NCBI GenBank assembly: GCA_047517145.1
Contig: JAKZTI010000073.1
Span: 1-46,662 of the forward strand
Source of the DNA: Gammaproteobacteria bacterium
Lineage (GTDB): Bacteria; Pseudomonadota; Gammaproteobacteria; Eutrophobiales; Eutrophobiaceae
Length of the DNA stretch: 46,662 nucleotides
Direction of reading: 5' to 3'
The translations under genes were made by a program, and so were the position numbers. The notes under the pieces are model-generated. The model was not told the DNA's origin. It was given only the letters and a program-made list of their open reading frames with translations, and ran no database searches. Positions 1 to 46,662 of this stretch are shown piece after piece. Each line of letters begins with the position of its first letter. Positions within the stretch are counted from its first letter, which is position 1.

Positions 1-713
1 TTCTGGATATTCAATCGGGTTCGGGTGGTACAGAAGCGCAGGACTGGGCTGATATGTTATTACGCATGTATGTGCGTTGGGGTGAGCAACATGGATTCAA
101 GACTGAGTTGATAGAGGTTTCTCCTGGTGATGTGGCAGGCATTAAAAGTGCGACCATCAAATATGAAGGAGATTATGCATTCGGTTGGTTACGTACAGAG
201 ACCGGTGTGCATCGCCTGGTCAGGAAATCACCCTTTGATTCCGGTAATCGCCGACATACTTCATTTGCCTCTGTTTTCGTCTCACCTGAGATAGATGACA
301 ATATTGATATAGAAATCAATCCTGCTGATCTACGTGTAGATACCTACCGCGCCAGCGGTGCGGGTGGGCAGCATGTGAACAAGACTGATTCTGCAGTGCG
401 GCTGACGCATTTACCAACGGGTGCCGTAGTTCAATGTCAGAATGACCGTTCACAACACAAGAACCGGGACCAGGCTATGAAGTTATTACGTGCCAAACTT
501 TATGAAATGGAAATGCAAAAAAGAAACTCTGATAAACAGGCACTGGAAGATTCGAAATCTGATATTGGCTGGGGCAGTCAGATTCGTTCTTATGTACTGG
601 ATCAATCTCGGATCAAGGATTTACGTACAGGGGTTGAAACTGGGAACACGCAAGCGGTACTTGATGGAGATTTGGACAAGTTTATTGAAGCCAGTTTGAA
701 GAGCGGACTGTAA
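1..713 (+). CDS. prfB: Peptide chain release factor 2 (5' end outside window)
   Basis: Frame is open from nt 3 ([16 protein letters not shown]). SPF anticodon motif (RKSPFD) and GGQ motif present; directly upstream of lysS. Confidence 0.98.
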
Positions 714-784
714 GCCTGCTGATAGAATAATTCCCCTGTAAACTGTTACACTTCCTTATCATTTTTACACATTAAATAACAGAT

Positions 785-2311
785 ATGTCTGACAACAAAG
801 ATAATAAACCAGAAAAAAACAAGCCCGACGAGAATAAACTAATCGTCCAGCGCCGTGAGCAGTTGGAGGCTCTACGCAAAAATGGTCAGGCCTATCCGAA
901 TGATTTCCGCCGCGATTCACTGGCAGATGAGCTGCATAAGACACATGCTGAATCTGACAAAGAAACTCTGGAGTCTCTCGGCATACGCGTCAATGTTGCC
1001 GGTCGAATGATGACTCGCCGGGTAATGGGCAAGGCTTCGTTTGCTCATATACAGGATATGTCAGGCAAGATTCAGCTTTATGTAAGGCGGGACGATCTGC
1101 CTGAAGGTCTTTATGCTGAATTTAAACAGTGGGATCTGGGAGATATTATTGGCGCAGAAGGCCAATTGATGAAAACCAATAAAGGTGAACTGAGTGTCCA
1201 TGTTGATAATATTCGTTTACTGACCAAATCATTACGGCCGCTGCCTGAAAAGTTTCATGGCCTGACAGATCAGGAAACCAAATATCGACAACGTTATGTC
1301 GACCTGATTATGAATGAAGATACACGTAGAACGTTTGCTATACGTTCAAGCGTTGTTGATTTTATCAGAAATTATTTAAAGGACGATGGCTTCATCGAAG
1401 TTGAAACACCGATGATGCACTTGATCCCGGGCGGTGCAGCAGCAAGACCATTTAACACGTATCACAATACCCTGGATATGGATTTGTTTTTACGCATTGC
1501 TCCAGAGTTATATCTGAAGCGTCTGGTTGTCGGTGGTATTGAAAGAGTCTTTGAGATTAACCGTAGTTTTCGTAACGAAGGATTATCACCCAGACATAAT
1601 CCTGAATTCACCATGCTCGAGTTTTATCAGGCATATGCGGATTATGAAGATCTGATGGATCTCACAGAAGATTTGATGCGGAAATTGGTGACAGAAGTAA
1701 CAGGCGGTACCACAATCACTTATCAGGAAACTGAATATGATCTTGGACAACCATTCTCAAGGATGACGGTGAAGGAATCAATCCTGCAATTTAATCCTGA
1801 TATTAATGCGGCTGACCTGGAATCTCTGGAATCTGCCAGCGCAATAGCTGAAAAACTGGGCATACATCTAGAAGAGAGTTATGGCCTTGGCAAGGTACAG
1901 ATAGAAATATTTGAGAAGACAGTGGAGTCGCGTTTAATGGCTCCAATATTTATTACCGCCTATCCCACTGAAGTTTCACCTTTAGCCCGTATGAATGATG
2001 ATGATCCATTTGTTACTGATCGATTTGAGTTTTTTATTGGCGGAAGAGAGATCGCCAATGGTTTTTCAGAATTAAATGACCCGGATGATCAGGCAGAACG
2101 CTTCAAAAAGCAGATGCAAGACAAAGAGGCCGGTGATGCCGAAGCCATGCATTTTGATGAAGATTACATTACTGCACTGGAATATGGCATGCCGCCAACG
2201 GCAGGCGAGGGCATCGGTATAGACCGACTGGTCATGTTTTTGACTGATTCCCCCACGATTAAAGACGTTATTTTATTTCCACATATGCGTCCTCAAGGAA
2301 AAGATAACTAG
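785..2311 (+). CDS. lysS: Lysine--tRNA ligase (class II)
   Basis: [31 protein letters not shown] and GEGIGIDRL motifs; prfB-lysS synteny. Confidence 0.98.
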
Positions 2312-2341
2312 GGAAAAGATAATTAGAGAAATTCTAATTAG
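2297..2341 (+). repeat. 15-bp tandem repeat spanning the lysS stop codon
   Basis: GGAAAAGATAACTAG / GGAAAAGATAATTAG / AGAAATTCTAATTAG; includes the inverted pair TAATTAGA...TCTAATTA (2320-2340). Confidence 0.6.
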
Positions 2342-2386
2342 GTCGTTGAAAATAAGGGCTTGATTCGATTTTTTCGCTGAGGGACG

Positions 2387-2414
2387 GGAACTTCTCCTAT
2401 ATGCCCCAGTCCAT
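2387..2414 (+). promoter_or_regulatory. Candidate ECF (sigmaE-like) promoter for hvfABC
   Basis: GGAACTT-N15-GTCCAT, close to the RpoE/AlgU consensus GGAACTT-N15-GTCnAA. Confidence 0.55.
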
Positions 2415-2569
2415 GAGTTTAGGCTCTGGATTGAACAGGATTTTCGCCGAAGATAGTCGACGGGAACCATTTTGGGAAGAGCAAGATAACATTTGTATAT
2501 CTATTTTTATGGAACCCGATTGTTTTGATGTTCGGGAAATTTTGTTAACAACTTGAGAGGACTCCTCAA

Positions 2570-2908
2570 ATGTCTAAAGAAAGAAAATTAACACCAATTG
2601 CTGCAGTTATGGGCGCAACCTTTGCCGTTTCATTAATGGCTAGCCCAATCACACAAGCAGCAGCGAACCCTTTTACCATGACGGATCATGGCGCCGGTTA
2701 TATGGTTGCTGAAGGTAATTGTGGCGATAAGAAAGGCGAAGGTTCATGTGGCGACAAGAAAGGTGAAGGCTCATGTGGCGATAAGAAAGCTGAAGGATCT
2801 TGTGGTGACAAGAAAGCCGAAGGCAAATGTGGTGAAGGTAAATGCGGCGAAAATAAAAAGAAAGAAGAAGGTAAATGTGGCGAAGGTAAGTGCGGCGATA
2901 AGAAATAA
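2570..2908 (+). CDS. hvfA: HvfA-family (oxazolin/bufferin-type) RiPP precursor
   Basis: Signal peptide, ANPF..GYMVA leader and eight EG[N/S/K]CG motifs; adjacent to DUF692 and DUF2063 genes. Confidence 0.9.
   Translation: MSKERKLTPIAAVMGATFAVSLMASPITQAAANPFTMTDHGAGYMVAEGNCGDKKGEGSCGDKKGEGSCGDKKAEGSCGDKKAEGKCGEGKCGENKKKEEGKCGEGKCGDKK
2711..2818 (+). repeat. Four 27-bp coding repeats (EGxCGDKK[G/A])
   Basis: Four in-frame units differing mainly at synonymous positions, followed by EGKCG pairs up to about 2896. Confidence 0.9.
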
Positions 2909-2925
2909 TCCAGAGACTTCATCAC

Positions 2926-3783
2926 ATGTCTGAAACATATCCTGTACAGGGTGCAGGATTAGGTCTGCGGCGAGCCTTCATTGGCTCGCTTGCAGATGAC
3001 ATTCCCTCCCAAATAGATTTTATGGAAGTTGCACCGGAGAACTGGATCGATGTAGGTGGCCGTCTAGGACGCCAATTCCGGAAAATCTCAGAACAAATAC
3101 CGATGGTCTGTCATGGATTATCTCTCAATATCGGCGGTCCGGCACCTCTGGATGAGCCATTTGTAAAACGTGTTAAGCAATTTCTTGAAACGCATAACAT
3201 ACGTGTTTATAGCGAACACCTGAGCTATTGTGCAGATGATGGTCATCTCTACGACCTGATGCCAATCCCCTTTACCGAAGAAGCTGTGCATTACGTGGCT
3301 GAAAGAATTCAGCGCGTACAGGATATTATTGGTCAAAAGATGGCGATGGAAAATGCTTCTTATTATGCTGAAATGGGAAAGGAAATGGAGGAGATAGATT
3401 TTATTAATGCGGTACTGGAAGAGGCCGATTGCCTGTTCCATATTGATATCAATAATATTTATGTCAACAGCATTAATCATAAATACGATGCAGAGAAATT
3501 TCTTAAAGCATTGCCAGGCGATCGAATCTCCTATGCACATATTGCCGGTCACTATGTTGAAGCTGAAGATTTAAGAGTCGATACCCATGGTGCGGATGTT
3601 CTTGATCCGGTCTGGAAATTATTAGATGTCGCTTATGAACACTTTGGTGTGTTCCCGACTTTACTGGAAAGAGATTTTAATATTCCTCCTATGGAAACCT
3701 TATTGAAGGAAGTCGATAGCATTCGTTACTATCAACAGAAGCATCAGGCAGATGACGACAACATCAAACAGCAACAACGCTGA
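2926..3783 (+). CDS. hvfB: MNIO (DUF692) RiPP maturase, HvfB/BufB-like
   Basis: GLGLRR, EVAPENW, HGLSL, SEHLS, DLMPIP, HIAGH, DTHG and LLERDFN motifs. Confidence 0.93.
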   Translation: MSETYPVQGAGLGLRRAFIGSLADDIPSQIDFMEVAPENWIDVGGRLGRQFRKISEQIPMVCHGLSLNIGGPAPLDEPFVKRVKQFLETHNIRVYSEHLSYCADDGHLYDLMPIPFTEEAVHYVAERIQRVQDIIGQKMAMENASYYAEMGKEMEEIDFINAVLEEADCLFHIDINNIYVNSINHKYDAEKFLKALPGDRISYAHIAGHYVEAEDLRVDTHGADVLDPVWKLLDVAYEHFGVFPTLLERDFNIPPMETLLKEVDSIRYYQQKHQADDDNIKQQQR

Positions 3784-4534
3784 GGATTTTAAGAAAGTGC
3801 AATATGCCTTTACCCGGCATATGCGCGATCCTGAAAATAATCCCGCACCAGAAGGCATAGAGGACAGACGTATCGGCGTCTATCGAGAACTGGTCTATAA
3901 CAACATAGAAGGATTTATTGCTAACAGCTTTCCAGTGTTGCGCAAGATTATACCGGATGAACAATGGCATGAGATGTTGCGCGATTATGTCTGTCATCAT
4001 CAGGCACATACACCCTTGTTTCCAAGAATGCCGCTGGAATTTATACAGTATCTTAAGACTGAGCGTGATGGACATCCGCAAGATCCGGCTTTTATGCTGG
4101 AGTTGGCGACCTACGAATGGGCAGAAATAGCTATTTCTCTGGATACCAGAGAAATTGAGTTAGATGGTATTGATGTTGACGGCGATTTATTAACAGGTAT
4201 TCCGGTACTGAATCCTATTGTCATGCCACAAACCTATCAATACCCGGTGCATCAAATCAGCCCTGACAATTTACCGGATGCGCCTCCTGAGTTACCGACT
4301 TATTTACTGGTCTACCGACGCAAGGATGATGAAGTCGGATTTCTCGAGTTAAATCCGGTTTCCGCGCGGTTGATTGAATGTATCCAGAGTAATAATGATA
4401 AAACTGGTTTACAGTTATTAGAAGGGATTGCCGAGGAACTTGATCATTCTGATCCACAGGTCGTTATCAATGGTGGCCAGGAGATTATGCGGGATATGCA
4501 TAGCAAGGATATTCTCCTTGGCGTTAGAACATAG
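3752..4534 (+). CDS. hvfC: MNIO partner protein (DUF2063), HvfC/BufC-like
   Basis: FTRHMRDP, RRIGVYRELVYNN, FPVL and LELATYEW motifs; overlaps the hvfB stop. Confidence 0.88.
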   Translation: MTTTSNSNNAEDFKKVQYAFTRHMRDPENNPAPEGIEDRRIGVYRELVYNNIEGFIANSFPVLRKIIPDEQWHEMLRDYVCHHQAHTPLFPRMPLEFIQYLKTERDGHPQDPAFMLELATYEWAEIAISLDTREIELDGIDVDGDLLTGIPVLNPIVMPQTYQYPVHQISPDNLPDAPPELPTYLLVYRRKDDEVGFLELNPVSARLIECIQSNNDKTGLQLLEGIAEELDHSDPQVVINGGQEIMRDMHSKDILLGVRT

Positions 4535-33422: not shown

Positions 33423-36119
33423 ATGGCTATGGAAATTAGACAGTCTATCGAGCAGGGGTTCACCATTGTGACGCCGACCAAGCGTCTCGGTCGGGCATTA
33501 CAGCAACAATACATTTCAGAGCAGTTATCAGCCGAAAAGAAAGTCTGGGAGACACCAGATATCCTGCCCTGGGCGGCCTGGATATTACGTAGCTGGGATG
33601 ATTTCGCAGCGCAACAACAGCAGGTTCCTCTATTACTCAACGCGCAACAACTGCAATGGGTCTGGCAAAAAATTGTTTCTGAATCCAGCTTTGCTAAAGG
33701 GTTCCTGCAACCTGCAGCCGCCGCAACCAGGGCCTATGATGCCTGGAAGATTACGCGCCAATGGCAATTGGAGCGTTTTCCAGAAGACCTCTGGCTCAAT
33801 AATGATGCCTTTGCCTTTCAATCCTGGGTTGAAACCTTTCAGCAACAATGTAAAAAACATAATTGGCTGGATGCAGCCAGTCTTGAAGGCTATTTATTAA
33901 ACGATGTCTCACAATGGGCAACACACTCTGCTGCAAAACTATGCCTGGTCGGCTTTGATGAGCTGACACCGGTTCAAGAGGCCTTACTTAAGGCCATGAA
34001 GGAAACCGGTTGCGAGATCAAACATTGTCAGGAGAATCTCGAGCCGGATCAAAGCGCAGAAATCATCAGGTCAGACTACGTTGACACAAGGCATGAAATA
34101 AAAGCCATTGCACTTTGGCTAAGAGAACAACTAAATCAAGATGCCAGTGCCTCGATCGGCATTGTCGTTCCAGAAATGGAAAGCCTGCGCACAGACATAG
34201 AAAATATTTTTGATGATGTACTCACACCCAGTAACCTTTTCAGCACTGATGGCGAGGCACACAACAATCGACCATATAATCTGTCTTTAGGACAACCCCT
34301 TTCCGAATATCCCATAATCCATGCTGCTTTTGCCATCCTTGGCCTGGAAAAGAAGGCCATCGAGCTGGAAGATCTAGGTGCCTTATTACGTTCTCCTTTC
34401 CTGGGCGGAGCAGAAACAGAAATGATCTCCCGTGCGCAACTGGATGCGCGTTTAAGAGAGCAGGGCGAACCAGCGGTCTTCCTCACCATCCTGCAAAAAT
34501 ACCTGGAGAAAGATAAATTCTGGTCGGAGCATTGTCCGCAATTGATTGCATCATTGCAGAAATGGCGTGAGGTTTTTCAAAACCTCATGAGAAAACAATC
34601 TTGCACAGAGTGGATTGAATCTTTTATTGCCTTGTTAAATACATTGGGTTGGCCGGGGGAACGCCAGATCCAGGGAGATGAATTTCAAACTATAGAAGCA
34701 TGGAAAGGATTGCTCGATCAATTTGCGTCACTGGATCTAGTCTCGGGAGATTTAACTTATAACGGTGCGCTGTCGCTATTGCAGCGCCTGGCACGCGAAC
34801 AAACCTACCAGGTAGAGTCGGAAGAAGTCCCGGTTCAGGTCATGGGTTTGCTGGAAGCCGCCGGCCTGCAGTTTGATCAACTCTGGGTTATGGGTCTGCA
34901 TGAAGAAACCTGGCCATCAACGGCCAGAGCCAACCCTTTCATCCCGATTAAATTACAAAGACAGGAAAATATGCCTCATGCCTCTGCCGAGCGTGAACTG
35001 GAATACGCACGCAGGATCACCTCGCGTTTAGCGGCATCGGCAAACAAAGTTATTTTCAGCTCACCTTTAAGTGAAGCGGGTAGAGAGCTGCGTCCAAGCC
35101 CACTGTTAAAACAATATACGTTGCAGAAAATAGAACAACCTGCAGACATTAATTATGCAGCAAGCATCTTCGACTCCAGCAAGATAGAACACTTTCATGA
35201 TGAGAGAGCACCCAAGCTTAAAGAAGCACAAGCCAGTGGTGGTACGGGTTTGTTTAAGGATCAGGCTGCCTGTCCATTCCGCGCCTTTGCCAGACATCGT
35301 CTCGGTGCCAGATCATTAGACGAGCCAGAGATTGGTTTAAGCCCGATGCAACGCGGCCAGTTAGTGCACGATTGTATGCAATTGTTCTGGGAAAAAATCA
35401 GCACCCACAAAGAACTGATCGAATTAACTGGTGGTGCACTGGCATTGCATATCAATCAGTGTGTTGCCAAAGTGATTAAACGTTTCCAGGCAAAGCGTCC
35501 GTTCACGGCGACCGCACGATTTATGCTGATTGAACAAAGCCGGCTGCAGACCATGATGCATGATTGGTTATCGCTGGAAAGAGAACGCCAACCCTTTACC
35601 GTTATCGAAAGAGAACAAAAACATTTTTGCAGCATTGAAGGTTTAAAGATTGAAATCCGCATGGATCGTGTTGATCTACTCCCTGATGGCAGTTTGATCG
35701 TGATTGACTATAAAACTGGCAGGGTTGCACTGGCAAGCTGGATGGATGAGCGTCCCGATGAACCGCAATTGCCACTCTATGCCGTCACTGCAGAAGGTAA
35801 TATTGCCGCCGTGGTCTTTGCACAAATCAGACGCGGCGAAATGAAATTTGTCGGCCTTACCGATGATGCTTACGGTGAAGAAGACAGCCCAATATTAATT
35901 CCAGAGGTAAAAACATTATCAAAATCCAGAGTCAGAGGAAGCTTTACCGATTGGGGTACCCTGTTTATGTTCTGGGAAGCCAATCTGAAAACACTTGCAA
36001 AAAATTACCGTAAAGGTGACGCGCGTGTTGATCCGCATAAAGCAAACACCTGTATGTATTGCGATCTGGGAACCTTGTGTCGCATTAATGAGCTGGTTGA
36101 GGCACCCAAAAAATTATGA
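33423..36119 (+). CDS. addB: AddB-like PD-(D/E)XK nuclease subunit
   Basis: CPFRAFA, DRVD, IDYKTG, QLPLY and C-terminal CxxC-x5-C Fe-S ligands; overlaps addA. Confidence 0.8.
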   Translation: MAMEIRQSIEQGFTIVTPTKRLGRALQQQYISEQLSAEKKVWETPDILPWAAWILRSWDDFAAQQQQVPLLLNAQQLQWVWQKIVSESSFAKGFLQPAAAATRAYDAWKITRQWQLERFPEDLWLNNDAFAFQSWVETFQQQCKKHNWLDAASLEGYLLNDVSQWATHSAAKLCLVGFDELTPVQEALLKAMKETGCEIKHCQENLEPDQSAEIIRSDYVDTRHEIKAIALWLREQLNQDASASIGIVVPEMESLRTDIENIFDDVLTPSNLFSTDGEAHNNRPYNLSLGQPLSEYPIIHAAFAILGLEKKAIELEDLGALLRSPFLGGAETEMISRAQLDARLREQGEPAVFLTILQKYLEKDKFWSEHCPQLIASLQKWREVFQNLMRKQSCTEWIESFIALLNTLGWPGERQIQGDEFQTIEAWKGLLDQFASLDLVSGDLTYNGALSLLQRLAREQTYQVESEEVPVQVMGLLEAAGLQFDQLWVMGLHEETWPSTARANPFIPIKLQRQENMPHASAERELEYARRITSRLAASANKVIFSSPLSEAGRELRPSPLLKQYTLQKIEQPADINYAASIFDSSKIEHFHDERAPKLKEAQASGGTGLFKDQAACPFRAFARHRLGARSLDEPEIGLSPMQRGQLVHDCMQLFWEKISTHKELIELTGGALALHINQCVAKVIKRFQAKRPFTATARFMLIEQSRLQTMMHDWLSLERERQPFTVIEREQKHFCSIEGLKIEIRMDRVDLLPDGSLIVIDYKTGRVALASWMDERPDEPQLPLYAVTAEGNIAAVVFAQIRRGEMKFVGLTDDAYGEEDSPILIPEVKTLSKSRVRGSFTDWGTLFMFWEANLKTLAKNYRKGDARVDPHKANTCMYCDLGTLCRINELVEAPKKL

Positions 36120-39100
36120 ATCAGGTTGCCGACAGTCAACAACGCAAGACCGCACTGAATCCAGAGCAATCTTTCATTGTGCGTGCCCCCGCGGGTTCGG
36201 GGAAAACCGAATTACTCATCCGTCGTTATCTAAGATTACTCTCCGGCGTTGAATCACCCGAAGAAATTATTGCCATTACCTTTACGCGCAAGGCCGCAGC
36301 AGAGATGCGCGGACGAATTATTTCATCACTAGAGTTAGCGCGCACGGGTGAGACACCCGCAGATGATTATCAAAAAGAAACCTATACCCTGGCGACAGAA
36401 GTACTCAAGCGAGATGAAGCGCAACAATGGCAATTGCAAGATAACCCCGGACGACTACGCATACAGACGATTGATTCATTGTGCTCAAGCATCACCCGGC
36501 AAATGCCGGTGCTCTCACAACTAGGCGCACAGCCAGAAACGCTGGAAGATGCCAGTGAACTCTATCTGGAAGCCGCTGAACGTACCATCCTGGCAATAGA
36601 GGATGGCGAGAGTTGGTCTGATTCCGTCGCTGAATTATTGGAACACCTTGATAATGACCTGCCAAGGCTGAAAAATTTAATAGCGGACATGTTAGCAAGA
36701 CGGGATCAATGGCTGCGACATATCACTAACGAAAACATCAGCCGCGAAGAACTTGATCAGGCCTTACATAATATTGTCTCTGCAACATTAAAAAGCGCAT
36801 ATGATGCGATTCCAGAAGAACTGGAACTTATCGACCTACTACAATATGCCGCAATAAACTTAATCGAAGAAGACAGTGAATCTTTGATCACAGAATGTGC
36901 CTCACTTGATTCACTGCCCGAAGCCGATCCTGCTGCCTTGTCGCAATGGCATGGCATTGCAGAATTTTTACTCACCAAACAAAACGAATGGCGTAAAAGT
37001 GTAAACAAAAACAATGGTTTTCCTGCCAGCGATAGCAAAGCAGACAAAGAGTTTGAAAAAGAACACGCTAAAAACATCAAGAGTCGTTATAAATCCCTGG
37101 TACAAACCTATGCAGAAAATGAAAACCTGTTAGACGTCCTCACCGAGATACGCTACCTGCCAGAAGTATGGGTATCCACGGATGACGTACACAGTGCCTG
37201 GCTCAATGACAGCCAATGGAAAATACTTCAGGCCTTGCCGACCTTACTGGTCATTGCTGAAGCACAATTACGGATTCTATTTTCAGAACACAGCAAGATC
37301 GATTTTACCGGTATTGAGCAATCCGCGTTACTGGCCCTCAGAGATCAGTTGGGGGATCAATCGGGAGATGATGAGCAGCCAACAGATTTGGCCTTACAAC
37401 TCGATTATCGAATTCAACATATCCTGGTGGATGAGTTTCAGGACGTCTCCGTCAGCCAGTATGATTTGTTGGAAAAACTCACCGAAGGTTGGAGCGACAA
37501 TGATGGTCGTACACTGTTTCTGGTCGGCGATCCCATGCAATCAATCTATCGCTTCCGCGAAGCAGAAGTCGGTAAGTTCCTAAGCACGTTTACCAATCAA
37601 CAGTTAGGCCAGGTCCCGTTACAGTCACTGACATTAGGTGTTAACTTTCGTTCACAACAAGGTCTTGTGACCTGGGTCAATGATGCCTTTGAAAAAATCC
37701 TCCCAAAACAGGAAGACATCGCCAACAGTGCCGTGAACTATTCGCCAGTAATTGCCGCAGATGATTCAGGCGCAGGGCAGGTGGTGATACATCCACTATT
37801 TCAAGATGATATTATGGGGACTTCATACGACACCCACCAGGAAGAAGCGAAACAGATCGTTCATACCGTCAGACAAGTTCGAAAAGAAACTAAAGATAAA
37901 GACTTGCATAAATCAATCGCCATCCTGGTACGCAGTCGACCACAACTGGATGCAATTATCGCGCATTTAAAACAAGCCGAGATCCGCTTTCAGGCAGTAG
38001 ATATAGAACGCTTAAGTCACCGTGCCGCAATTCAGGATTGCCTGGCCTTAACGCGGGCATTATTGCACCCGGCAGATCGTGTTGCCTGGTTATCTATATT
38101 ACGTGCCCCCTGGTGTGGCTTAACACTGGCCGATCTAAATGTCCTGGCCGGCAAGCAACAGGCAATACCCATCTGGTCATGTATGAATGATGAATTAAGA
38201 ATGAAAAAACTCAGTAAAGATGGCCAACAACGACTGTTGAAACTGAGAGAAGTATTAAGCAAGGTAATAGCAAACCGTAGACGTAAACCGCTGCGCCGCA
38301 TGGTTGAAATGGTCTGGATAGAAATAGGCGGACCAGCGACATTGGAAGACGCATCTGATCTGGAAAATGTTCAAACCTATTTTGATGTCTTGCAGCAAGA
38401 AGAAGAAAGCAGTGATCTTAAAACACTGGCTAAACTGGAAAAAGCTGTCGAAGGACTTTATGCCGCCGCAGATGTGCAAAGTTCGGCCGATTCAAAAGTC
38501 AATGGTGCCTCAGATGAAATGAACGTACAAATCATGACCATCCATAAAGCCAAAGGCCTGGAGTTTGATATCGTCATCCTGCCGGGGCTGGGTCGTGGCG
38601 GCAAAGCTGAGGATAAGCGTTTATTACTCTGGCAGGAACAACAAAGAAAAGATGGTGGCAACGATTTGTTACTGGCGCCCATCAAGGAGACAGGAGTCGA
38701 TGAGGACAAGTTATATTGTTATCTGGAAATGCTTGAAAAAGCCAAACTCAAAAATGAACAAGGTCGCCTGTTATATGTCGCCGCGACACGAGCAAGAGAA
38801 CAATTGCATCTATTCGGCGCGACCAAACTGGCAAAAGAAAAAAATGAAATATCTCCACCACAAAAGAATTCATTACTGGCAAAACTCTGGCCGGTGGTGG
38901 AAGCAAACTATCAATGGGTCTATACATCAGGACATGGAGATGTTGTAAAAGAAACAAATCAGCCTGCTGAAACAGAAAATCACTTTCGTCGTCACATAGC
39001 CACCTGGAAAAGACCAAAGCCACCTAACAATGTGGATTGGCAACAGAGCGAAGCAATGGTGGCAGAAACATCAGACAGTGACATTGAATTTGAATGGGCC

Positions 39101-39631
39101 ACAGAAACCATTCGGCATGTCGGTATCGTGGTACATCGCTGCATTCAACTCATGACCGAAGATCAAACGAGCTGGGATAAAAAACGAATACAAAGTCAAC
39201 GACACTGGTTCCGACAAGCACTGAAACGACAAGGCGTTGGAGAAGAAGAAAGCCACGTGGCGTGTCAACAAGTCGAAGAAGCCCTGATGAATATGATTAA
39301 AGACGAACGTGGTCAATGGTTGCTTTCCAAAGAACACCAACAACAAAAAAATGAATATACCCTAAGTGGGGTATATCAAGACAAGGTTATCAGTATTAAG
39401 ATTGATCGCACCTTTGTAGATAAAGACGGTACACGCTGGATCATTGATTATAAAACCAGTCGTCATGAGGGAACAGATATAGAGTCATTTCTTGATCTAC
39501 AACAAGAACGTTATACAGAACAGTTGGAAAAATATGGGGCTTTAATGGGGTTGCACGGCGATGAACCAGTGAAACTGGGGCTTTATTTTCCGTTATTACA
39601 AGGCTGGAGGGAGTGGGAGTATAGTAATTAG
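36116..39631 (+). CDS. addA: AddA-like UvrD helicase-nuclease
   Basis: APAGSGKT, TFTRKAA, LVDEFQD, VGDPMQSIYRFR, MTIHKAKGLEF, YVAATRA and IDYKT motifs. Confidence 0.85.
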   Translation: MNQVADSQQRKTALNPEQSFIVRAPAGSGKTELLIRRYLRLLSGVESPEEIIAITFTRKAAAEMRGRIISSLELARTGETPADDYQKETYTLATEVLKRDEAQQWQLQDNPGRLRIQTIDSLCSSITRQMPVLSQLGAQPETLEDASELYLEAAERTILAIEDGESWSDSVAELLEHLDNDLPRLKNLIADMLARRDQWLRHITNENISREELDQALHNIVSATLKSAYDAIPEELELIDLLQYAAINLIEEDSESLITECASLDSLPEADPAALSQWHGIAEFLLTKQNEWRKSVNKNNGFPASDSKADKEFEKEHAKNIKSRYKSLVQTYAENENLLDVLTEIRYLPEVWVSTDDVHSAWLNDSQWKILQALPTLLVIAEAQLRILFSEHSKIDFTGIEQSALLALRDQLGDQSGDDEQPTDLALQLDYRIQHILVDEFQDVSVSQYDLLEKLTEGWSDNDGRTLFLVGDPMQSIYRFREAEVGKFLSTFTNQQLGQVPLQSLTLGVNFRSQQGLVTWVNDAFEKILPKQEDIANSAVNYSPVIAADDSGAGQVVIHPLFQDDIMGTSYDTHQEEAKQIVHTVRQVRKETKDKDLHKSIAILVRSRPQLDAIIAHLKQAEIRFQAVDIERLSHRAAIQDCLALTRALLHPADRVAWLSILRAPWCGLTLADLNVLAGKQQAIPIWSCMNDELRMKKLSKDGQQRLLKLREVLSKVIANRRRKPLRRMVEMVWIEIGGPATLEDASDLENVQTYFDVLQQEEESSDLKTLAKLEKAVEGLYAAADVQSSADSKVNGASDEMNVQIMTIHKAKGLEFDIVILPGLGRGGKAEDKRLLLWQEQQRKDGGNDLLLAPIKETGVDEDKLYCYLEMLEKAKLKNEQGRLLYVAATRAREQLHLFGATKLAKEKNEISPPQKNSLLAKLWPVVEANYQWVYTSGHGDVVKETNQPAETENHFRRHIATWKRPKPPNNVDWQQSEAMVAETSDSDIEFEWATETIRHVGIVVHRCIQLMTEDQTSWDKKRIQSQRHWFRQALKRQGVGEEESHVACQQVEEALMNMIKDERGQWLLSKEHQQQKNEYTLSGVYQDKVISIKIDRTFVDKDGTRWIIDYKTSRHEGTDIESFLDLQQERYTEQLEKYGALMGLHGDEPVKLGLYFPLLQGWREWEYSN

Positions 39632-39670
39632 AAGAAATTTATTAGGAAATATTGGGGTGAATTACTACTT

Positions 39671-39692
39671 TTTTTAATAGTTTTGGGTCTGT
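39671..39692 (+). repeat. Left att-like site (arm + core)
   Basis: TTTTTAATAGTTTTG followed by GGTCTGT. Confidence 0.6.
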
Positions 39693-39704
39693 TTATGTAC
39701 TTGA

Positions 39705-39929
39705 ACACAGTTTGAACTCCCACAGCCCAAAACTGTAAATGATGTTATCCTTAATCGGCCCATTGAAAATGGTATTGAAATACAGCAAGTAATGAGCGAA
39801 GTTGCCAACCACTATATATCTCGCATCATGAAGGAAACGGGCAATAATATAAGCCGCGCGGCACAGTTACTTGGTCTGAATAATTATCAAACATTAAAAA
39901 ACTGGATCCGTAAATATAACATAGAATAA
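39705..39929 (+). pseudogene. 3' remnant of a sigma54 enhancer-binding protein (Fis-type HTH)
   Basis: Hand translation: FELPQPKTVNDVILNRPIENGIEIQQVMSEVANHYISRIMKETGNNISRAAQLLGLNNYQTLKNWIRKYNIE*. In-frame TGA at 39702; AAA+ domain missing; not in the ORF track. Confidence 0.8.
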
Positions 39930-39932
39930 TTC

Positions 39933-39948
39933 TGGCACGGCACTTGCT
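39933..39948 (+). promoter_or_regulatory. Sigma54 (-24/-12) promoter facing brxE
   Basis: TGGCACG-GCAC-TTGCT matches the consensus TGGCACG-N4-TTGCW; about 100 nt before the brxE start. Confidence 0.8.
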
Positions 39949-40008
39949 AAAGTATCCGTATAAAAGATTTTTAGAAGTTAAATACCTTGGTTGCATAAAA
40001 CAAGGTGG

Positions 40009-40030
40009 GGTCTGTCAAAACTATTAAAAA
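40009..40030 (+). repeat. Right att-like site (core + arm)
   Basis: GGTCTGT followed by CAAAACTATTAAAAA, the exact reverse complement of the left arm. Confidence 0.6.
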
Positions 40031-40048
40031 TTTGAATGGAGGCATTTT

Positions 40049-40549
40049 TTGTCGAACTTGGAATTAATCAGTTTGCGTGTGAGCGTTGGCTATCTAGGTG
40101 AAAAAGCACAATATGATTGGTGGCCAACGGAGTTTTTCTCAGCGACTAGCGAAGCTTTTCTTAGCCCAGTGTTCAGTAGAACAAGATTTCTCGCTCGCTA
40201 CCACGGCATTACCACGGCAGCGCGACGCCTTCATGATGAACGGGTCGGAGTCGGCCGTGTTTTCCATTTATTCCGACTGCCCGCAGTTGCAGAGCAGGCT
40301 CTTCACGAGGAATTGCTAGCTGAAAGCATTGTTAAGTCTATGCTAGCAAACACAGAATCAAAAGATGCTGCATTGGCTGCCATCGAAATGCTGGCTGACT
40401 CTTCGGTACCGACCTCCGAAGGCCCCGTTCAAATCGGCGAAACAGCAGATTTGGTAGGGGTGGACTGGATTGCCCAAGCAGCCGCTTACTATCGAGACGC
40501 TTTTAAGGGGAATAATCAGTGCTTTCCGTATCTCAAAGATCCGATTTAG
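40049..40549 (+). CDS. brxE: BrxE family protein
   Basis: LRxxVGYLGE..WW, HDER.GVG..HLFRLP and terminal FPY motifs; GGAGG RBS with TTG start; heads the brx operon. Confidence 0.78.
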   Translation: MSNLELISLRVSVGYLGEKAQYDWWPTEFFSATSEAFLSPVFSRTRFLARYHGITTAARRLHDERVGVGRVFHLFRLPAVAEQALHEELLAESIVKSMLANTESKDAALAAIEMLADSSVPTSEGPVQIGETADLVGVDWIAQAAAYYRDAFKGNNQCFPYLKDPI

Positions 40550-41334
40550 TGGTGACACCGATTTATACGACTCAGCTGCAAGCGGGTCTGGGCCTGATCG
40601 AGGTGACGCGTGATTTGTTGGACTTGTGGCAAGAAGGTATGAACACTGCTGATTTGAATCATGCGGCGTTAAGTTCAGGCCGCTTCCCCAATGTTTCGGC
40701 CAGAAGGTTGCGAAACATCGTATCCGAGTGTTTTGCGCCTCGCTATTTGGTGCCACCGGGCCCGCCTGCAATATATTTAAAGCAGTTAGCGCCAATCGTT
40801 ACCACGATGGAACTACAACAATTACTCCTTATATATACGGCTCGCGCAAACACAATATTTGCCGACTTCATTCGCGACGTTTACTGGCAGCGGTACTCGG
40901 CTGGGCTGGATTACATCGATAAAGAGCATGCCAAGCGATTCTTGCTGCAAGCTATCGATGAGGGGAAAACCAGCAAACGATGGTCGGAGAGCACAGTTAA
41001 TCGTGTATCTGGCTACTTGCTAGGGTGCTGTGCCGACTACGGATTGCTTGGTCAAAGAATTAAAAGTGGAAGAATGATGGCGTCTTTTCGAATCGATTCG
41101 CGTGTTACCGCGTATCTAGCGCACGATCTGTATTTTTCCAATCGAGGTGATAATCTCGTTGTTGTCCACGAAGACTGGGGACTGTTTGGTTTCGAAGCGT
41201 CGGATGTGCGTAACGAGCTAAAACGTGTTTCGCTCCAAGGTCATTTCATTGTTCAGACAGCCGGTGATGTGATTCAAATTGGGTGGCGTTACGAGTCATT
41301 ACAGGAGTTAGTAGATGTCCTCGCTCAACAGTGA
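40549..41334 (+). CDS. brxA: BrxA (DUF1819) protein
   Basis: YTTQLQAGLG, SARRLRN, FAPRY, WSEST and DYGLL motifs; GTG start coupled to the brxE stop. Confidence 0.8.
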   Translation: MVTPIYTTQLQAGLGLIEVTRDLLDLWQEGMNTADLNHAALSSGRFPNVSARRLRNIVSECFAPRYLVPPGPPAIYLKQLAPIVTTMELQQLLLIYTARANTIFADFIRDVYWQRYSAGLDYIDKEHAKRFLLQAIDEGKTSKRWSESTVNRVSGYLLGCCADYGLLGQRIKSGRMMASFRIDSRVTAYLAHDLYFSNRGDNLVVVHEDWGLFGFEASDVRNELKRVSLQGHFIVQTAGDVIQIGWRYESLQELVDVLAQQ

Positions 41335-41887
41335 CTTTAAAGAACTCCTTGAGCGTATTCGTCGGGGACGAGAATTCATGGATTCAAGCTTTGAGCCCAT
41401 TTACTACCTTGTCTTCAGGCCAAGCGAAATACTCGAGGTCAAACGCCAGACACCCGCTTGGATGGCCAAATTACGTAATGAGGGCTGGGAAGTACACACT
41501 TTCTCAATTGCAGAGCATGTCTCAGCTGTTCTAAAAGATTCCCCTAGACGTAGATTTTGGATTGAGCGAGATAAGCAGCATCCACTGGACTGGGAGACTA
41601 CAAATGATTCTCTGGCCGATGCATTACGCCAAGGATATTTGCAGCAGCATTTGGAAACAACGCTGTCTGAACTCGAAGGGGAAGAAAACGCGATCATACT
41701 CGTGACTGATCTCGAGGCACTGCACCCCTATCTCCGTATAGGAGCAATTGAGGCACAGTTGCAAGGCAAATTTCATGTGCCAACGGTGTTTCTGTACCCA
41801 GGCGTAAGAACGGGAAAAACGCGTCTTAAATTCCTCGGCTTTTATCCAGAGGACGGCAACTACCGATCGGTTCATGTCGGCGGTTAG
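41315..41887 (+). CDS. brxB: BrxB (DUF1788) protein
   Basis: PIYYLVF, DLEALHPYLR, FLYPG and LKFLG..DGNYRS motifs; position in the operon. Confidence 0.82.
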   Translation: MSSLNSDFKELLERIRRGREFMDSSFEPIYYLVFRPSEILEVKRQTPAWMAKLRNEGWEVHTFSIAEHVSAVLKDSPRRRFWIERDKQHPLDWETTNDSLADALRQGYLQQHLETTLSELEGEENAIILVTDLEALHPYLRIGAIEAQLQGKFHVPTVFLYPGVRTGKTRLKFLGFYPEDGNYRSVHVGG

Positions 41888-41918
41888 TAAATATACTGAT
41901 ATTAGATGGTAACTTGAT

Positions 41919-44900
41919 ATGCAAATAAGAGAAATTTTTGACTCAAGTAGGGACATTTTTCGGCCGATCGAAAAAGTTATATCTTATGGAGCGACTCAGG
42001 AACAGAGTTTGAAAAAAGAGATCTCCGAATATGTTGTCACGGAGAGCATGGAGGAGCAGCTAGAAAAGCTTCTCAAAGGTATGCAGGCCGCCATGGATCA
42101 GGGCGGTGAATATGAGATTGGTGTTTGGGTTTCCGGCTTCTATGGCTCAGGTAAGAGTTCGTTTACAAAATATCTCGCGTTAGCGCTCGACGATTCAGTA
42201 GTCGTAGAAGGTCAACCATTTTTAAAGCATTTCCAGGATCGCTGTCATAAAGCAGGTACAAAAGCGTTGCTGGGTACTCTGGCGGCGCGGTTTCCCGCTG
42301 CCGTTGTTATGTTAGACCTTGCTAGTGAGCAAATTGCTGGCGCGACACTCGTGGAGGTCTCGACAGTGCTTTACTACAAGGTACTACAATGGGCAGGATA
42401 TTCGAGAAACGTCAAAATTGCCGCTTTTGAAAGGAAGCTGAAAAAAGACGGAAGGTATGAGGAGTTCCAGAAGCTATTTCAGGATGAAGTGAAGGAACCT
42501 TGGACCGAGTGTCAAAATGATCAACTTGTGGCCGATAGTGTGTTACCAAAAATCGCTCATCAACTCTACCCAACCATGTTTGAAACTCCACAATCTTTTA
42601 CAACAACAAGCACCGACATTATTTATCTCATGGATGACCGAGTACAAGAAATGCTCGATATTGTTCACGAGCATTCTGGTAAGGAAAATGTACTCTTCGT
42701 AATCGATGAAGTAGGCCAATATGTCGGTAGTAACCAAAATAAAATATTGGATCTACAGGGACTGGCGGAGAACTTTAAGAATATTGGCAATGGTAAAGTA
42801 TGGTTAATTAATACTGCGCAACAGACGCTGACCGAAGACGATCCTCAAGTTGCAATCAATTCGCCTCAACTTTACAAGTTAAAAGATCGCTTCCCCATTT
42901 CAGTGAATCTAAAGTCACAAGATATCAAGGAGATTTGTTTTCGCCGATTGCTAGGCAAATCGCCGGAGGGTGTCACAACATTAGAGGAGCGATTTCAACA
43001 GCACGGCCAGGCTTTGCGCCATAATACAAAGCTTGAAGACGCCAAATTCTATGACTCAAACTTTGGCGAAGAGGAATTTATTAATCTCTATCCGTTTCTA
43101 CCAGCCCATTTCGATATTCTGCTTTATCTCCTTGGCCAATTGGCAAAGTCAACGGGCGGCGTTGGATTACGTTCGGCGATCAAGGTCATTCAGGACATAC
43201 TAGTCGACAACGAACACGGGCGAATACCGGCGGCGGATTGCCTTATTGGCTGGCTTGCTACCACCGTTACGCTCTATGATTCGCTCGAACGCGACATAGA
43301 ACGGGCTTGCTCTCCCGAGTATCAAGCAGTCGGCAAAGTAATGATTCGTTATCCAGATTCTCAGTTACATCAGGATATCGCAAAAACAATTGCGGTACTT
43401 CAAATTCTTGGAAATCTGCCGATAACTAAGGTAAATGTTGCCGGATTGATGCATGCGAAAATTTCGGACTCATCACGTTTGGAGGAAATTCAGGTTGCAA
43501 TTGATGAAATGTTGGGTGATGCGATCGTGCCGTTGGGAGAAACCGATGGTTCGATCAGTTTTCACAGCGAAAAGCTCACTGATATCGCACAAGAACGGGG
43601 GCAAATCCCGCTAAGAAATGCTGACGCAAGGCGAATCTTCAATGATTCATTGAGAGAGTTGTTTACACCAGCGCACGAAAGTGCAAGTTCACATATCATT
43701 AGGCGTTTCCACAGGAATTAAATCGCAGAAAGGTGCTCAAGTCATTAGTTTATCGGGGGAACGAGAACCCATTCAGACGGTGATTCAGTTTGCAGATGAC
43801 GCGGATTTTGAGACGGATAAATCGAGCCTCGTGAGTGAATCTCGCGAACGCTCTTCGTTGCAAGTTATCTACTTGCTGGGCCAAAGTGCCGCTGATGCCG
43901 ATACGATGGTAATGGAAATCTATCGCTGCGAACGGATTGCTGAAGCTCACCGAAGCGATCCCGATCAAGAGGTTAGAGATTACTGCATCAGTCAAACTGA
44001 TAGAGCAACCAAGCTAAAAAAAGACCTGCAACAAAAATTAGAACGAGGTCTCAAACGCGGTGCATATGTCTTTCGAGGGCAGTCCACTGCCGTCAACGCA
44101 TTGGACAGCGAATTGACACAAGCGACCAAACTGCAGTTGTCGGCAGCCGCAACAGAAATATTTGATCGATATCCGGATGCCGCTGTTCGGGCTGAGACAA
44201 ACGTTGCGGAAAGATTCCTGCGTCTAGAGAACCTGAATGCCGTAACGTCACAGATTGATCCACTTGGACTGGTCGAAAAAGATGGCGGCAGCTTTAAGGT
44301 CAATACAGATCATGCCGCGATTATTGGTATTAGAAACTACATCGATCGAACAGGGACAATTGAAGGTAAGCGACTTCAAGAGCACTTTGGTGGAGCACCG
44401 TTTGGGTGGTCTCCAGACACGGTACGATACGTTGTAGCGGCGATGCTAATGACAGGGGAAGTAAAAGTTCGTATCAGTGGTAATGAGGTCACGGCTGCCG
44501 GTCAACAAGCGATCGATGCACTAAAGACCAATAACACTTTCAAAAACATTGGTATTTTACTGCGGGATGATCGGCCCTCAAATGAAGTAGTTTCGAAAGC
44601 TGCCGAGAGATTAACGGATTTGACGGGCGAGAATGTTGTACCGCTAGAGCAAAATATCAGTCAGACTGCTGCTAAGCATCTTCCGCAGGTAAACCAAAAG
44701 ATTGCTTCTTTACCACAAAAACTTGATGACTTGGCCATACCGGGCGGGGATAAGATAGCCGGGGCCGCTCAGGAAATTGCCGACCTTTTATTGACCGATG
44801 CCTCTGATGCTCCGTTTGTCTTGGGCAAGGAAGAATCAAATTTGTACGAGACGGTGATATGGGCACTAGCGGTCAAGAAGAGTTTGGATCAGGGCCTGGA

Positions 44901-45531
44901 GTCGACCATTAGCGCTGTGCGGAAGCATCAAAAGGAAATAGAAGCGCTTCCAGATAAAGGAACACCGGGTCAGCTCAAAAGCGATGTCGAAGACGAAATG
45001 CAACAGATAGATTCGCGTCTGGCGGCGGATGATTTTTATAAGCACGGTGCAGACCTGAGTACGCTGCTCACAGGTTTGAAATCAAAAGTGAATAATGCTG
45101 CATCGAACCTCATCAGCGAACAGCAGGATCGTGTGCGTGCAGCAGAGAAAGACCTGGAACGTTTGTCCGAGTGGGATGAGCTGACCAAAGAAGAGCAAAA
45201 TAACGTGCTCAACCAAATCGACGAACTGCACATCGAAGTCGAGACTGATCTCGAAGGCTTGCGACGATTGGTCTGTCACGAGTTCGATGTTCAATCAAGT
45301 ATTGCCGAATTGAAGGCGCGGGTTATTGAGGAAGGCCAAGAAAGGCGTCGTAAACGCGTTGAGAGAGAAAAGGGTAAGAAAGACGGCGATGCTAAAGAGC
45401 ACAGAGTTGTAAACGTTCCAGAGGTGATTTCGGATTTAGAGGAACTCGAGCAGATCATCAAGGCGCTCGAAAAGGTTAAGGCGGAAATGACCTACTTCGA
45501 TTCCTTCGAAATCCGAATTGAGAAGGAGTAA
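41919..45531 (+). pseudogene. brxC: BrxC P-loop ATPase split by a +1 frameshift near 43675
   Basis: ORF 41919-43721 carries WVSGFYGSGKS, LFVIDEVGQY and YPF. ORF 43681-45531 carries PFGW and a coiled-coil tail. Removing one base at about 43675 joins them into roughly 1200 aa. Confidence 0.82.
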
Positions 45532-45541
45532 GTGCGTCGTC

Positions 45542-46662
45542 ATGGCCTTCGATCAGACTACTCGTAAGCAGCTTCAGGACTTCGTTCATGCTGCCCGAAC
45601 GTTGCTCACGGATGAGTTCACACGGCAGCTGCAGCAGAACCATGGATTGGATCCGGAGACTGGGGATGTCACTGAACTTGAGACGCTCACACACCTTGAC
45701 GATCATACCTTTGAAATAGCTAGTCTACTCAGAGAAATCATGGCCCATTACGAGGCATCTGACATGGTGTCAGGACAAGAAGGACAGAAATTCGTTCTAA
45801 ATCGAATCGCTAGAGAGCAAGCGTTCACCGTTTTAAATCGACTCGTTGCATTTCGCATGATGGAGACGCGAGGATTACTGCGGCAATCCGTTGGGAGTGG
45901 ATTTCAATCGGAAGGATTCCAACTCTATGAGCGTCTCGCAGGCCGCGGACTGGGGGATACAGGCGAGGCCTATCAAGTTTTTTTATTCAGCCTCTTCGAT
46001 GAATTTTCGCAAGAGATGCCACAACTATTTGACCGATACTCTGCACACGGACAGCTCTTTCCCCGCGAGCGGGCACTGGTCGATCTGCTGGTTTTGATTA
46101 ATGCGACACACCTCGAGCATTTATGGGCGGAGGATGAAACCATCGGTTGGATTTATCAATACTTTAATTCGGCCGAAGAACGCAAAAAGATGCGGGACGA
46201 AGGCAAATCCGGCCCGCGCAACAGTCGAGAATTGGCCGTTCGCAATCAGTTTTTCACACCAAGATATGTTGTGGAGTTCCTGGTAGACAATTCACTCGGC
46301 CGCCAGTGGTACAACTACACAGGTGGTGAGTCCGCCATATTCGATAAATGCCAGTATCTGTTGGTCAAACCGGATGATCCAAAACCGGAGCAACCCGAGC
46401 TTTTGCCAGACCCTCGCGGTATTCGATTGTTAGACCCTGCTTGCGGTTCCATGCATTTCGGCCTTTATGCTTATGACCTCTTTGAGTTAATTTACAAAGA
46501 AGCCTGGGCGGCGGAACATGACAAAGGAGCCGACAAACTTAGAAGAGAGGACGGCATTGAACCACTCACACAGGTTTATCAATCTGAGCAGGATTTTCTC
46601 ACCGACCTGCCCCGACTCATTCTGAATCACAATATCTTTGGCGTTGAAATTGATTCCAGAGC
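45542..46662 (+). CDS. pglX: PglX/BrxX adenine DNA methyltransferase (runs off window)
   Basis: Hand translation MAFDQTTRKQL..., AFTVLNRL, IGWIYQYF, NQFFTPRYVV, LDPACGSMHF, NIFGVEID. Absent from the ORF track because no stop occurs in the window. Confidence 0.9.
   Translation, partial: MAFDQTTRKQLQDFVHAARTLLTDEFTRQLQQNHGLDPETGDVTELETLTHLDDHTFEIASLLREIMAHYEASDMVSGQEGQKFVLNRIAREQAFTVLNRLVAFRMMETRGLLRQSVGSGFQSEGFQLYERLAGRGLGDTGEAYQVFLFSLFDEFSQEMPQLFDRYSAHGQLFPRERALVDLLVLINATHLEHLWAEDETIGWIYQYFNSAEERKKMRDEGKSGPRNSRELAVRNQFFTPRYVVEFLVDNSLGRQWYNYTGGESAIFDKCQYLLVKPDDPKPEQPELLPDPRGIRLLDPACGSMHFGLYAYDLFELIYKEAWAAEHDKGADKLRREDGIEPLTQVYQSEQDFLTDLPRLILNHNIFGVEIDSR

Follow-up and report, generated by a model that had tools for sequence, protein, structure and literature searches.

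A putatively orphaned sigma-54 promoter and the 3' end of an RtcR-like activator gene in front of a BREX operon

We analyzed a 46,662-nucleotide (nt) stretch of DNA from a gammaproteobacterium of the family Eutrophobiaceae (GenBank assembly GCA_047517145.1, contig JAKZTI010000073.1; the whole stretch is hereafter called the window), in which a bacteriophage exclusion (BREX) operon begins behind an addA-like core gene. The 417 nt between addA and brxE hold the last 74 codons of the gene for an RtcR-like sigma-54 activator and, 3 nt past its stop codon, a putative sigma-54 promoter of the -24/-12 type with a consensus sequence (Table 1). We hold with moderate confidence that these are a leftover regulatory cassette, namely the tail of a lost activator and the orphan promoter of its family, which arrived as a fragment before brxE. 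The whole protein would consist of a CARF-type sensor, an AAA+ motor and a Fis-type helix-turn-helix (HTH) domain, of which only the linker and the DNA-binding tail would be left here. The box at 39933-39948 would be the activator gene family's own sigma-54 promoter, which in intact relatives would lie at or a few bases past the activator stop codon and drive a defence operon, mostly type I restriction-modification (R-M). The piece would have come before brxE, into the variable spot behind addA, as a fragment or as a residue of a rearrangement, and it probably did not originate as the decayed head of this BREX operon.

The frame of the activator remnant is open for 74 codons (39705-39926) and ends with TAA at 39927-39929. 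Its 74-amino-acid (aa) product matched Pfam HTH_8 with an E-value of 5e-6; Pfam found only HTH_8 and HTH_28 there, and the Sigma-54 interaction AAA+ domain (PF00158) was absent from the frame. In PADLOC, the product matched PDLC01995 (RtcR_PspF2--CARF_AAA_HTH) at positions 417-481 of 481 (E 9e-18), and BLASTP aligned it with residues 435-503 of a 503-aa full-length relative at 50% identity (E 4e-21), with the same terminal motif in both. A phmmer scan of the 74-aa tail against 1.84 billion representatives gave 387 matches, 69 of them at E 1e-10 or better and the alignment always at the C-terminal end (an earlier word-index search had given 18 candidates, none of which scored). When 25 of the best phmmer matches were scanned for domains, 19 were at least 313 aa long; 17 of these carried Sigma54_activat, 7 of the 17 together with the CARF-like RtcR domain, and 2 carried only HTH_8. 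The 6 others were short: five had only an HTH family or families, and the sixth, P0067 (203 aa), which is the best phmmer match overall, has a piece of an M24 peptidase in front of the tail. The remnant holds the linker and the Fis-type HTH only, the C-terminal HTH being collinear to the end of the protein, and the CARF-like (RtcR) sensor is missing, since upstream there are only a TGA stop codon at 39702-39704, a 73-nt spacer and addA. Judging from these matches, 39705-39929 is the 3' end of an RtcR-like sigma-54 activator gene whose sensor and ATPase are missing. The original prediction for this DNA, made from the letters alone, had described a Fis-HTH tail of about 74 codons ending at 39929, which the frame and the HTH_8 match confirm, and had likened it to RtcR-like activators, on which the PADLOC, phmmer and BLASTP results agree. 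Its "ATG near 39793" is the ATG at 39792, the first in-frame start, and the full-length homologues and sensor that it proposed to retrieve turned out to be CARF-type RtcR_PspF2 relatives.

The sigma-54 box lies 100 nt before brxE on the strand that points at this gene. GG at -24 and GC at -12 are present, ten bases apart, in the context TGGCAC-N5-TTGCW, and the earlier description of a consensus box 3 bp past the tail and aimed at brxE proved exact; transcription is predicted to start near 39959. One exact match occurs in the window where 0.06 were expected, and at least one occurred in 5 of 100 shuffles. In the whole 2,005,974-base genome TGGCACGGCACTTGCT is the sole exact match on either strand. 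Because chance alone would place about 2 exact matches in so large a genome (a rough estimate for 4 Mb, both strands and 11 fixed bases), the count alone proves little, and the weight comes from the place of the box and its conservation in relatives. No terminator-like site was found between 39631 and 40048.

Conservation was analyzed by searching the tail in 400 class-sampled and 400 phylum-sampled genomes, which gave 34 strong-match loci. Together with L101, a brxE locus described below, these made 35 loci, which PADLOC sorted into 25 of CARF type and 10 relatives without the CARF part. The CARF-type activators were whole at 22 loci, frameshifted at one (L204/L175), cut by an IS4-type transposase at one (L209) and located at a contig edge at one. 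With at most 2 mismatches allowed and GG/GC in place, a box began 0-16 nt past the activator stop codon at 18 of the 25 CARF-type loci (14 genera; several of the 18 are kin, and the count overstates their independence). At 13 loci the box stood at 0 nt, typically as TGA followed directly by TGGCAT-N5-TTGCT. One more CARF-type locus had the box 84 nt past the stop codon and six had none, and no box past the stop codon was found in the 10 CARF-less relatives. We estimate that chance would produce such a box at a rate of about 0.0014 per locus. In 17 boxed loci the gene next downstream of the box was scanned: it encoded type I HsdR (DUF4145, HSDR_N, ResIII) in 15, whereas an AAA_15 ATPase and a bpMoxR ATPase were found at one locus each; further downstream, where this was fetched, lay HsdM, HsdS and an AAA ATPase. 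In the Pseudomonas luteola plasmid NZ_CP044084, a regulator ending in ...KYGIE is followed by 3 nt, TGGCACGATCCTGGCT, a helicase, a methyltransferase and an S subunit. On this comparison of sequences, the succession of tail, stop codon and box is a conserved design of the RtcR_PspF2-type activator family, and the window holds its last 244 nt. A box past the stop codon of the homologues, ahead of defence genes, was what the original prediction had proposed to look for, and the outcome was positive. Its statement that such activators stand beside R-M operons agrees with the HsdR loci, with NZ_CP044084 and with the available parts of a published survey (PMC4012209). The alternative that box and HTH-like frame arose independently by accident in AT-rich intergenic DNA would accommodate the chance matches expected in the genome and found in the shuffles, but it does not accommodate an arrangement that recurs in 18 of 25 relatives or the E-value of the tail against the family profile, and we count it as refuted.

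Several loci showed further particulars. At L209 (G636:C327, 219-1938), an IS4-family transposase (DDE_Tnp_1, DUF4372) replaces the first ~374 activator codons, and the last 163 activator residues are retained with the exact box TGGCACACTCGTTGCT directly past the stop codon. At L204 (G150:C3, 12048-13560), a frameshift splits the activator into frames of 387 aa and 143 aa; the box is directly past the stop codon, and behind it an NsnB/PDC-M55A/AriA-type AAA ATPase takes the place of hsdR. On the Polaromonas naphthalenivorans plasmid pPNAP01 (L235, 7687-18201), a whole activator is followed by co-directional genes for DUF4258, VWA, PP2C phosphatase, protein kinase and large AAA proteins, with a weaker GG/GC box (3 mismatches) 30 nt before the DUF4258 gene and with integrase and IS5 pieces upstream. 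At L207, L210, L212, L215, L216, L220, L221, L233 and others, the called hsdR start lies 28 nt past the activator stop codon. Because this is only ~12 nt past the box, the hsdR transcript would have little or no leader, unless translation in fact begins at the second Met, 5-6 codons on.

Regulators of this kind have been described before. Makarova et al. 2014 (PMC4012209) reported that the family with RtcR-like CARF, NtrC-like AAA+ and HTH domains is "often associated with restriction-modification systems" and predicted sigma-54-mediated regulation for it; the available passages of that paper place no -24/-12 box at the stop codon. The regulators of this family (PDLC01995) have the same C-terminal end as the remnant and, when intact, stand directly before type I R-M genes, whereas here only the last 74 of ~500 codons are left, with neither CARF nor AAA+, and the cargo is BREX. 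Bell et al. 2024 (eLife, PMC11090510) described RtcR-headed superoperons with CoCoNuT, type I RM, BREX as well as Druantia III and predicted activation via an upstream activating sequence, with no promoter mapping in the passages available. The superoperons have the regulator gene at the 5' side and the defence genes co-directional behind it, with BREX among the cargo, and the layout is the same here, except that the regulator is a stump and that the available 6.6 kb show no CoCoNuT. In Escherichia coli and Salmonella, RtcR activates the rtcBA RNA-repair operon; it has the same domain order and depends on sigma-54, as stated in the accessible parts of PMC7790460 and PMC9650030. The profile of RtcR proper (PDLC01993) matches the intact relatives more weakly (for example, RtcR_PspF2 E 4e-198 versus RtcR 2e-58). 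The rtcR gene is divergent from rtcBA; here there is no rtcA or rtcB, and the gene order relative to the target differs. BREX is known to be controlled by BrxR, a WYL-domain repressor, and a regulator module likewise lies directly upstream of BREX in that case. Here the module is a sigma-54 promoter with an activator stump: no WYL, winged HTH (wHTH) or BrxR-type gene was found between addA and brxE in the list of open reading frames (ORFs), Pfam or PADLOC, and no ORF of at least 40 aa lies between 39632 and 40048 besides the remnant frames. Among the matches listed in the literature search, no paper combined BREX with sigma-54 terms, and hsdR occurs in PMC2725144 only in strain genotypes. Neither a box at the activator stop codon nor an activator-less relic before BREX was found in the literature searched, on which the supplements of PMC4012209 and PMC11090510 may bear. 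As far as the consulted portions of these two papers go, R-M and BREX operons headed by RtcR-like activators have been published before, and the locus is a broken variant of a known system.

Because this is a relic at a single locus and the general idea is in print, the gain is modest. RtcR-like CARF activators at the heads of defence operons have so far been a computational prediction, and the sigma-54 promoter that abuts the stop codon provides a precise testable element for type I R-M, BREX and related operons. The window is a natural activator-less version before an otherwise intact BREX, which could show the effect of an orphan promoter, be it nothing, a roadblock or cross-activation.

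The sigma-54 holoenzyme binds boxes of this kind as a closed complex, and an AAA+ activator is required for opening. In the host genome, rpoN is present (PF04552 match on contig C34, E 9e-70, 505-aa frame), and seven enhancer-binding proteins are encoded on other contigs, with strong matches to both PF00158 and PDLC01995; three more weak PF00158 matches are not activators by PADLOC search. The CARF part of PDLC01995 (positions 1-125) had no match anywhere in the genome, no tail-like HTH was found elsewhere in it (best other tblastn E-value 0.07), and the tail was found at E 1e-7 in 0 of 120 further genomes of the host's family. Because sensor and motor are gone and no activator of the family was found in the 90%-complete genome or in the host family, the promoter would be orphaned. 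Sigma-54 polymerase would sit on it and, unable to open it without an activator, stay loaded but idle, and the BREX genes may be transcribed by read-through from addBA, from a weak unrecognised promoter or when a non-cognate activator occasionally fires the orphan promoter. The host also has near-consensus boxes of its own beside its activator genes. On another of its contigs (G000 contig C165, ~1123-2350), for example, a host activator is followed at 2229 by such a box, TGGCACGGTATATGCA, which lies 106 nt upstream of a 141-aa ORF, in a co-directional layout as in the foreign cassette.

We then compared the window with other brxE loci, of which 63 from genomes and 80 from metagenomes were found using an 11-sequence BrxE alignment (a 25-sequence one was too diverse). 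A box with at most 1 mismatch lay within 300 nt of brxE in 0 of the 126 other loci that had at least 300 nt upstream and the N-terminus, and a looser scan of the first 63 loci gave nothing convincing. Upstream of brxE, an activator of the RtcR_PspF2 family was found in 1 of the 91 loci with at least 1.7 kb upstream, L101, and there was no box in the 89-nt spacer between its activator and brxE. Because 18 of 25 relatives of the activator are boxed and none of the 126 other brxE loci is, the box belongs to the activator cassette and not to BREX. The original prediction had taken the defence genes here to be signal-inducible through sigma-54, which for this BREX finds no support in these counts or in a piece that looks inserted. 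Of its interpretation as a whole, the identity of the pieces stands, whereas past control of this BREX through them is conjectural. Upstream of the activator, L101 also carries (653-4520) co-directional genes for a 1166-aa helicase-like protein (PADLOC PDC-M27C/ZacC-like) and a 125-aa ORF.

The DNA around the remnant bears on how it got there. Same-genus relatives match the window only to ~39616-39625 (query position ~217-226 of 1201), and past addA the 7 relatives examined (L082-L088) all carry other DNA; the region after 39631 is on these grounds variable and foreign. Tail, box and the 59 nt behind the box lie in a single-copy piece of 315 nt with a GC content of 36.5%, against 46-49% for the BREX genes and addBA. 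The piece is bracketed by an 8-nt direct repeat, which in turn lies inside the two arms of a perfect 15-nt inverted repeat (Table 1); none of 300 dinucleotide shuffles reached 15 (the largest was 13), and the inverted repeat has only these two copies in the genome. When the piece and one copy of the direct repeat are taken away, a hairpin is left, with a stem of 15 bp and the repeat as its loop, just before the brxE ribosome-binding site. The arrangement resembles the outcome of an insertion into the loop of a hairpin, accompanied by a duplication of 8 nt. Because of its low GC content and the 8-nt repeat inside the split 15-nt palindrome, the piece probably arrived as a fragment or a rearrangement residue, which we rate somewhat above decapitation of a whole activator gene in place. 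Measured by the hallmarks of miniature inverted-repeat transposable elements (MITEs) or derivatives of insertion sequences, GGGTCTGT is present as a target-site-duplication-like repeat, and terminal inverted repeats and multiple copies are absent: by eye, neither terminal inverted repeats at the ends of 39693-40007 nor Xer-type arms were seen, and tblastn found no second copy of the tail in the genome. As a separate matter, 39949-40007 was considered as a decayed 5' end of hsdR and rejected, the tblastn match being weak and out of register and the local DNA score being 14 against a shuffle mean of 16.9, with 291 of 300 shuffles as good.

A perfect 15-nt inverted repeat that flanks a promoter-bearing segment also recalls the invertible promoters of the fimS type, in which inverted repeats flank a short promoter segment. 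Recombination between the arms would flip the 330-nt segment and turn the promoter toward or away from BREX, and BREX-like systems are known to phase-vary. In contrast to the fimS type, there is no recombinase gene or domain among the ORFs of the window, and no flipped form, that is, no strand-changing joint at the arms, was seen in the contigs of four runs, although contigs drop rare forms (runs X8 and X12 had no cover over 39589-40114). The 8-nt repeats inside the arms are direct, which fits a duplication upon insertion better than recombination sites, and we regard phase variation at this locus as highly improbable.

Several observations weigh against a leftover that arrived as a fragment. 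No known insertion mechanism fits the piece, because it lacks terminal inverted repeats and occurs only once. The remnant keeps an open frame and conserved HTH residues, and therefore recent loss or selection on the tail fits better than an old relic. Between the box and brxE no sigma-70-like promoter of any quality was found (the remnant contains one weak site), which leaves the sigma-54 box as the sole strong promoter-like element ahead of brxE. The assembly has 190 contigs and a completeness of 90%, the rest of the island is missing from it, and a cognate activator elsewhere is possible. Finally, L101 has a whole activator 89 nt before brxE, followed by brxA, brxB and brxC, all co-directional, and because of this locus and of the RtcR-headed superoperons in the available parts of Bell et al. 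2024, it is possible that a once-complete activator-BREX unit was decapitated in place.

In such a decapitation, the island would once have had the whole activator and its promoter, and a deletion or recombination at its left edge would have removed the first ~430 codons. The gene order of L101 and the naming of BREX among those superoperons are in line with this, the remnant lies within 75 nt of the end of homology with the relatives, and the activator head has been lost elsewhere too, to the IS4-type transposase at L209 and the frameshift at L204. However, the remnant differs from the BREX genes in GC content, and the 8-nt direct repeat in the split palindrome brackets tail and promoter exactly, which a simple deletion would not yield. 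The boxless spacer of L101 and the 126 boxless brxE loci point the same way, and we consider this explanation somewhat improbable, though L101 and the superoperons speak for it.

It is also conceivable, and in our view unlikely, that the promoter still works, with a non-cognate or unassembled activator firing the box from solution or via sites in the DNA of the tail. In that case BREX would depend on sigma-54 and respond to the signal sensed by that activator. The host has rpoN and seven activators, the box is a perfect consensus with no strong competitor before brxE, the BREX genes are intact in other samples, and ~225 nt are retained upstream of the box, where enhancer sites usually lie. Moreover, a promiscuous activator without DNA binding fired sigma-54 promoters genome-wide in Salmonella, according to the accessible part of PMC3844500. 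Against this, no resident activator has a similar HTH, the activator family was absent from the 120 genomes of the host's family, and no conserved dyad was found in the tail: when the 240 nt ahead of the box were compared between 18 relatives and the window, no shared dyad that might be an enhancer site emerged, these 240 nt of the window held no perfect 6-nt dyad, and a loose dyad cluster ~180-200 nt upstream in 7 loci is indistinguishable from coding constraint. Activation from solution is, in addition, generally weak.

The original prediction had also considered that the residual HTH is translated. From the ATG at 39792 it would give a 45-aa peptide that occupies the old enhancer sites and represses or insulates the operon. 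The in-frame ATG has the entire Pfam HTH_8 match behind it, and 96 of the 150 best phmmer matches are short (<250 aa), keeping only the C-terminal 58-389 residues of such activators. Only the ATG itself speaks for translation at this locus: no Shine-Dalgarno sequence precedes it and no promoter could be assigned, while in such activators the DNA-binding domains work as dimers, which other regions of the protein keep together. The short database matches form a continuum of retained lengths, 58-389 residues, with no discrete left breakpoint, and they may be gene-call fragments or real stumps; 17 of 97 short tail-only proteins have unrelated leaders of >15 aa. We consider a functional peptide very unlikely.

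More speculatively, the tail and its stop-abutting promoter may be a portable module, the 315-nt copy of which was captured in the hairpin loop before brxE with the 8-nt duplication, rewiring BREX to sigma-54. Cells may repeatedly discard the sensor and keep the poised promoter, to lock down a costly defence operon or to hand it to another activator. Repeated loss of this kind is possible because activator-less copies recur, as at L209 and L204, in the fusion of the tail to a peptidase and in dozens of metagenome tail-only proteins, and we regard the proposal as doubtful.

Table 1. Features of the window that are discussed in the text.
Feature	Coordinates	Strand	Basis or remark
addA-like helicase-nuclease, last core gene	36116..39631	+	Pfam UvrD-helicase/UvrD_C/PDDEXK_1; NCBIfam addA models below cut-offs
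Left arm of perfect 15-nt inverted repeat, partner 40016-40030	39671..39685	.	repeat search
Left copy of 8-nt direct repeat GGGTCTGT, directly inside left arm	39685..39692	+	repeat search
315-nt piece (activator tail, sigma-54 box, 59 nt behind box), single copy	39693..40007	+	GC 36.5%
Remnant, last 74 codons and stop codon of RtcR-like CARF-AAA+-HTH activator gene	39705..39929	+	Pfam, PADLOC, phmmer, BLASTP
Longest ORF with start codon inside remnant, 45 aa, HTH only	39792..39929	+	no Shine-Dalgarno seen upstream of ATG
Putative sigma-54 -24/-12 box TGGCACGGCACTTGCT	39933-39948	+	0 mismatches to TGGCAC-N5-TTGCW
Right copy of 8-nt direct repeat GGGTCTGT, directly inside right arm	40008..40015	+	repeat search
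Right arm of 15-nt inverted repeat	40016..40030	.	repeat search
brxE, 166 aa, TTG start, GGAGG at 40038-40042 (6 nt upstream)	40049-40549	+	NCBIfam BrxE_fam NF033447, 156 bits vs cut-off 40; PF26412
brxA	40519..41334	+	PADLOC BrxA PDLC02445, E 3e-109; Pfam BrxA
brxB	41315..41887	+	PADLOC BrxB PDLC02465, E 2e-102
brxC, split into 41919-43721 and 43681-45531	41919..45531	+	PADLOC BrxC positions 3-588 and 592-1208 of 1212, E 3e-288 and 3e-213
pglX 5' part, cut by contig end	45518..46662	+	PADLOC PglX PDLC02527, E 1e-161; NCBIfam BREX_1_MTaseX, best match BREX-1 type

The order brxA, brxB, brxC, pglX fits BREX (type 1-like, with BrxE), and each of the 66 BrxE homologues matched PF26412. PglZ (PF08665) was not found in the 90%-complete assembly, and the contig itself stops in pglX. 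Contigs of runs X1 and X5 (two other studies, depth ~128) span 39433-46662; they differ there from the window by 5 substitutions and by the lack of one base at 43675, and activator tail and box are identical in both. The absent base lies within a run of three A, and without it the brxC frame has 1203 codons, so that the split of brxC comes down to one base, which reflects either an error in this assembly or a difference between strains. The BREX genes are intact in these other samples, over the same 7.2 kb. The X1/X5 contigs (16.2 kb) extend 8.9 kb past the window end, enough for the remainder of pglX together with pglZ and a final gene. Within these 8.9 kb past 46662, the 16.2-kb contig also holds a 43-nt match to addA 39373-39415, which could be a direct repeat bounding an island of ~16 kb; neither a second copy of the addA 3' piece nor the rest of BREX was found in the assembly.

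The window is the entire contig C73 of the ~2.0-Mb assembly. Up to 39631 it carries core genes, among them prfB, lysS, pyruvate dehydrogenase genes and argG, the last being addB-like and then addA-like. The place behind addA has the look of a hot spot of variable or defence DNA; in L083, an ORF that we take to be AbiEi-like begins behind addA. At 2926-4534 of the window, the gene for an enzyme that modifies ribosomally synthesized and post-translationally modified peptides (MbnB/TglH/ChrH-type) overlaps a DUF2063/NGO1945 gene, a combination that usually goes with a small modified peptide.

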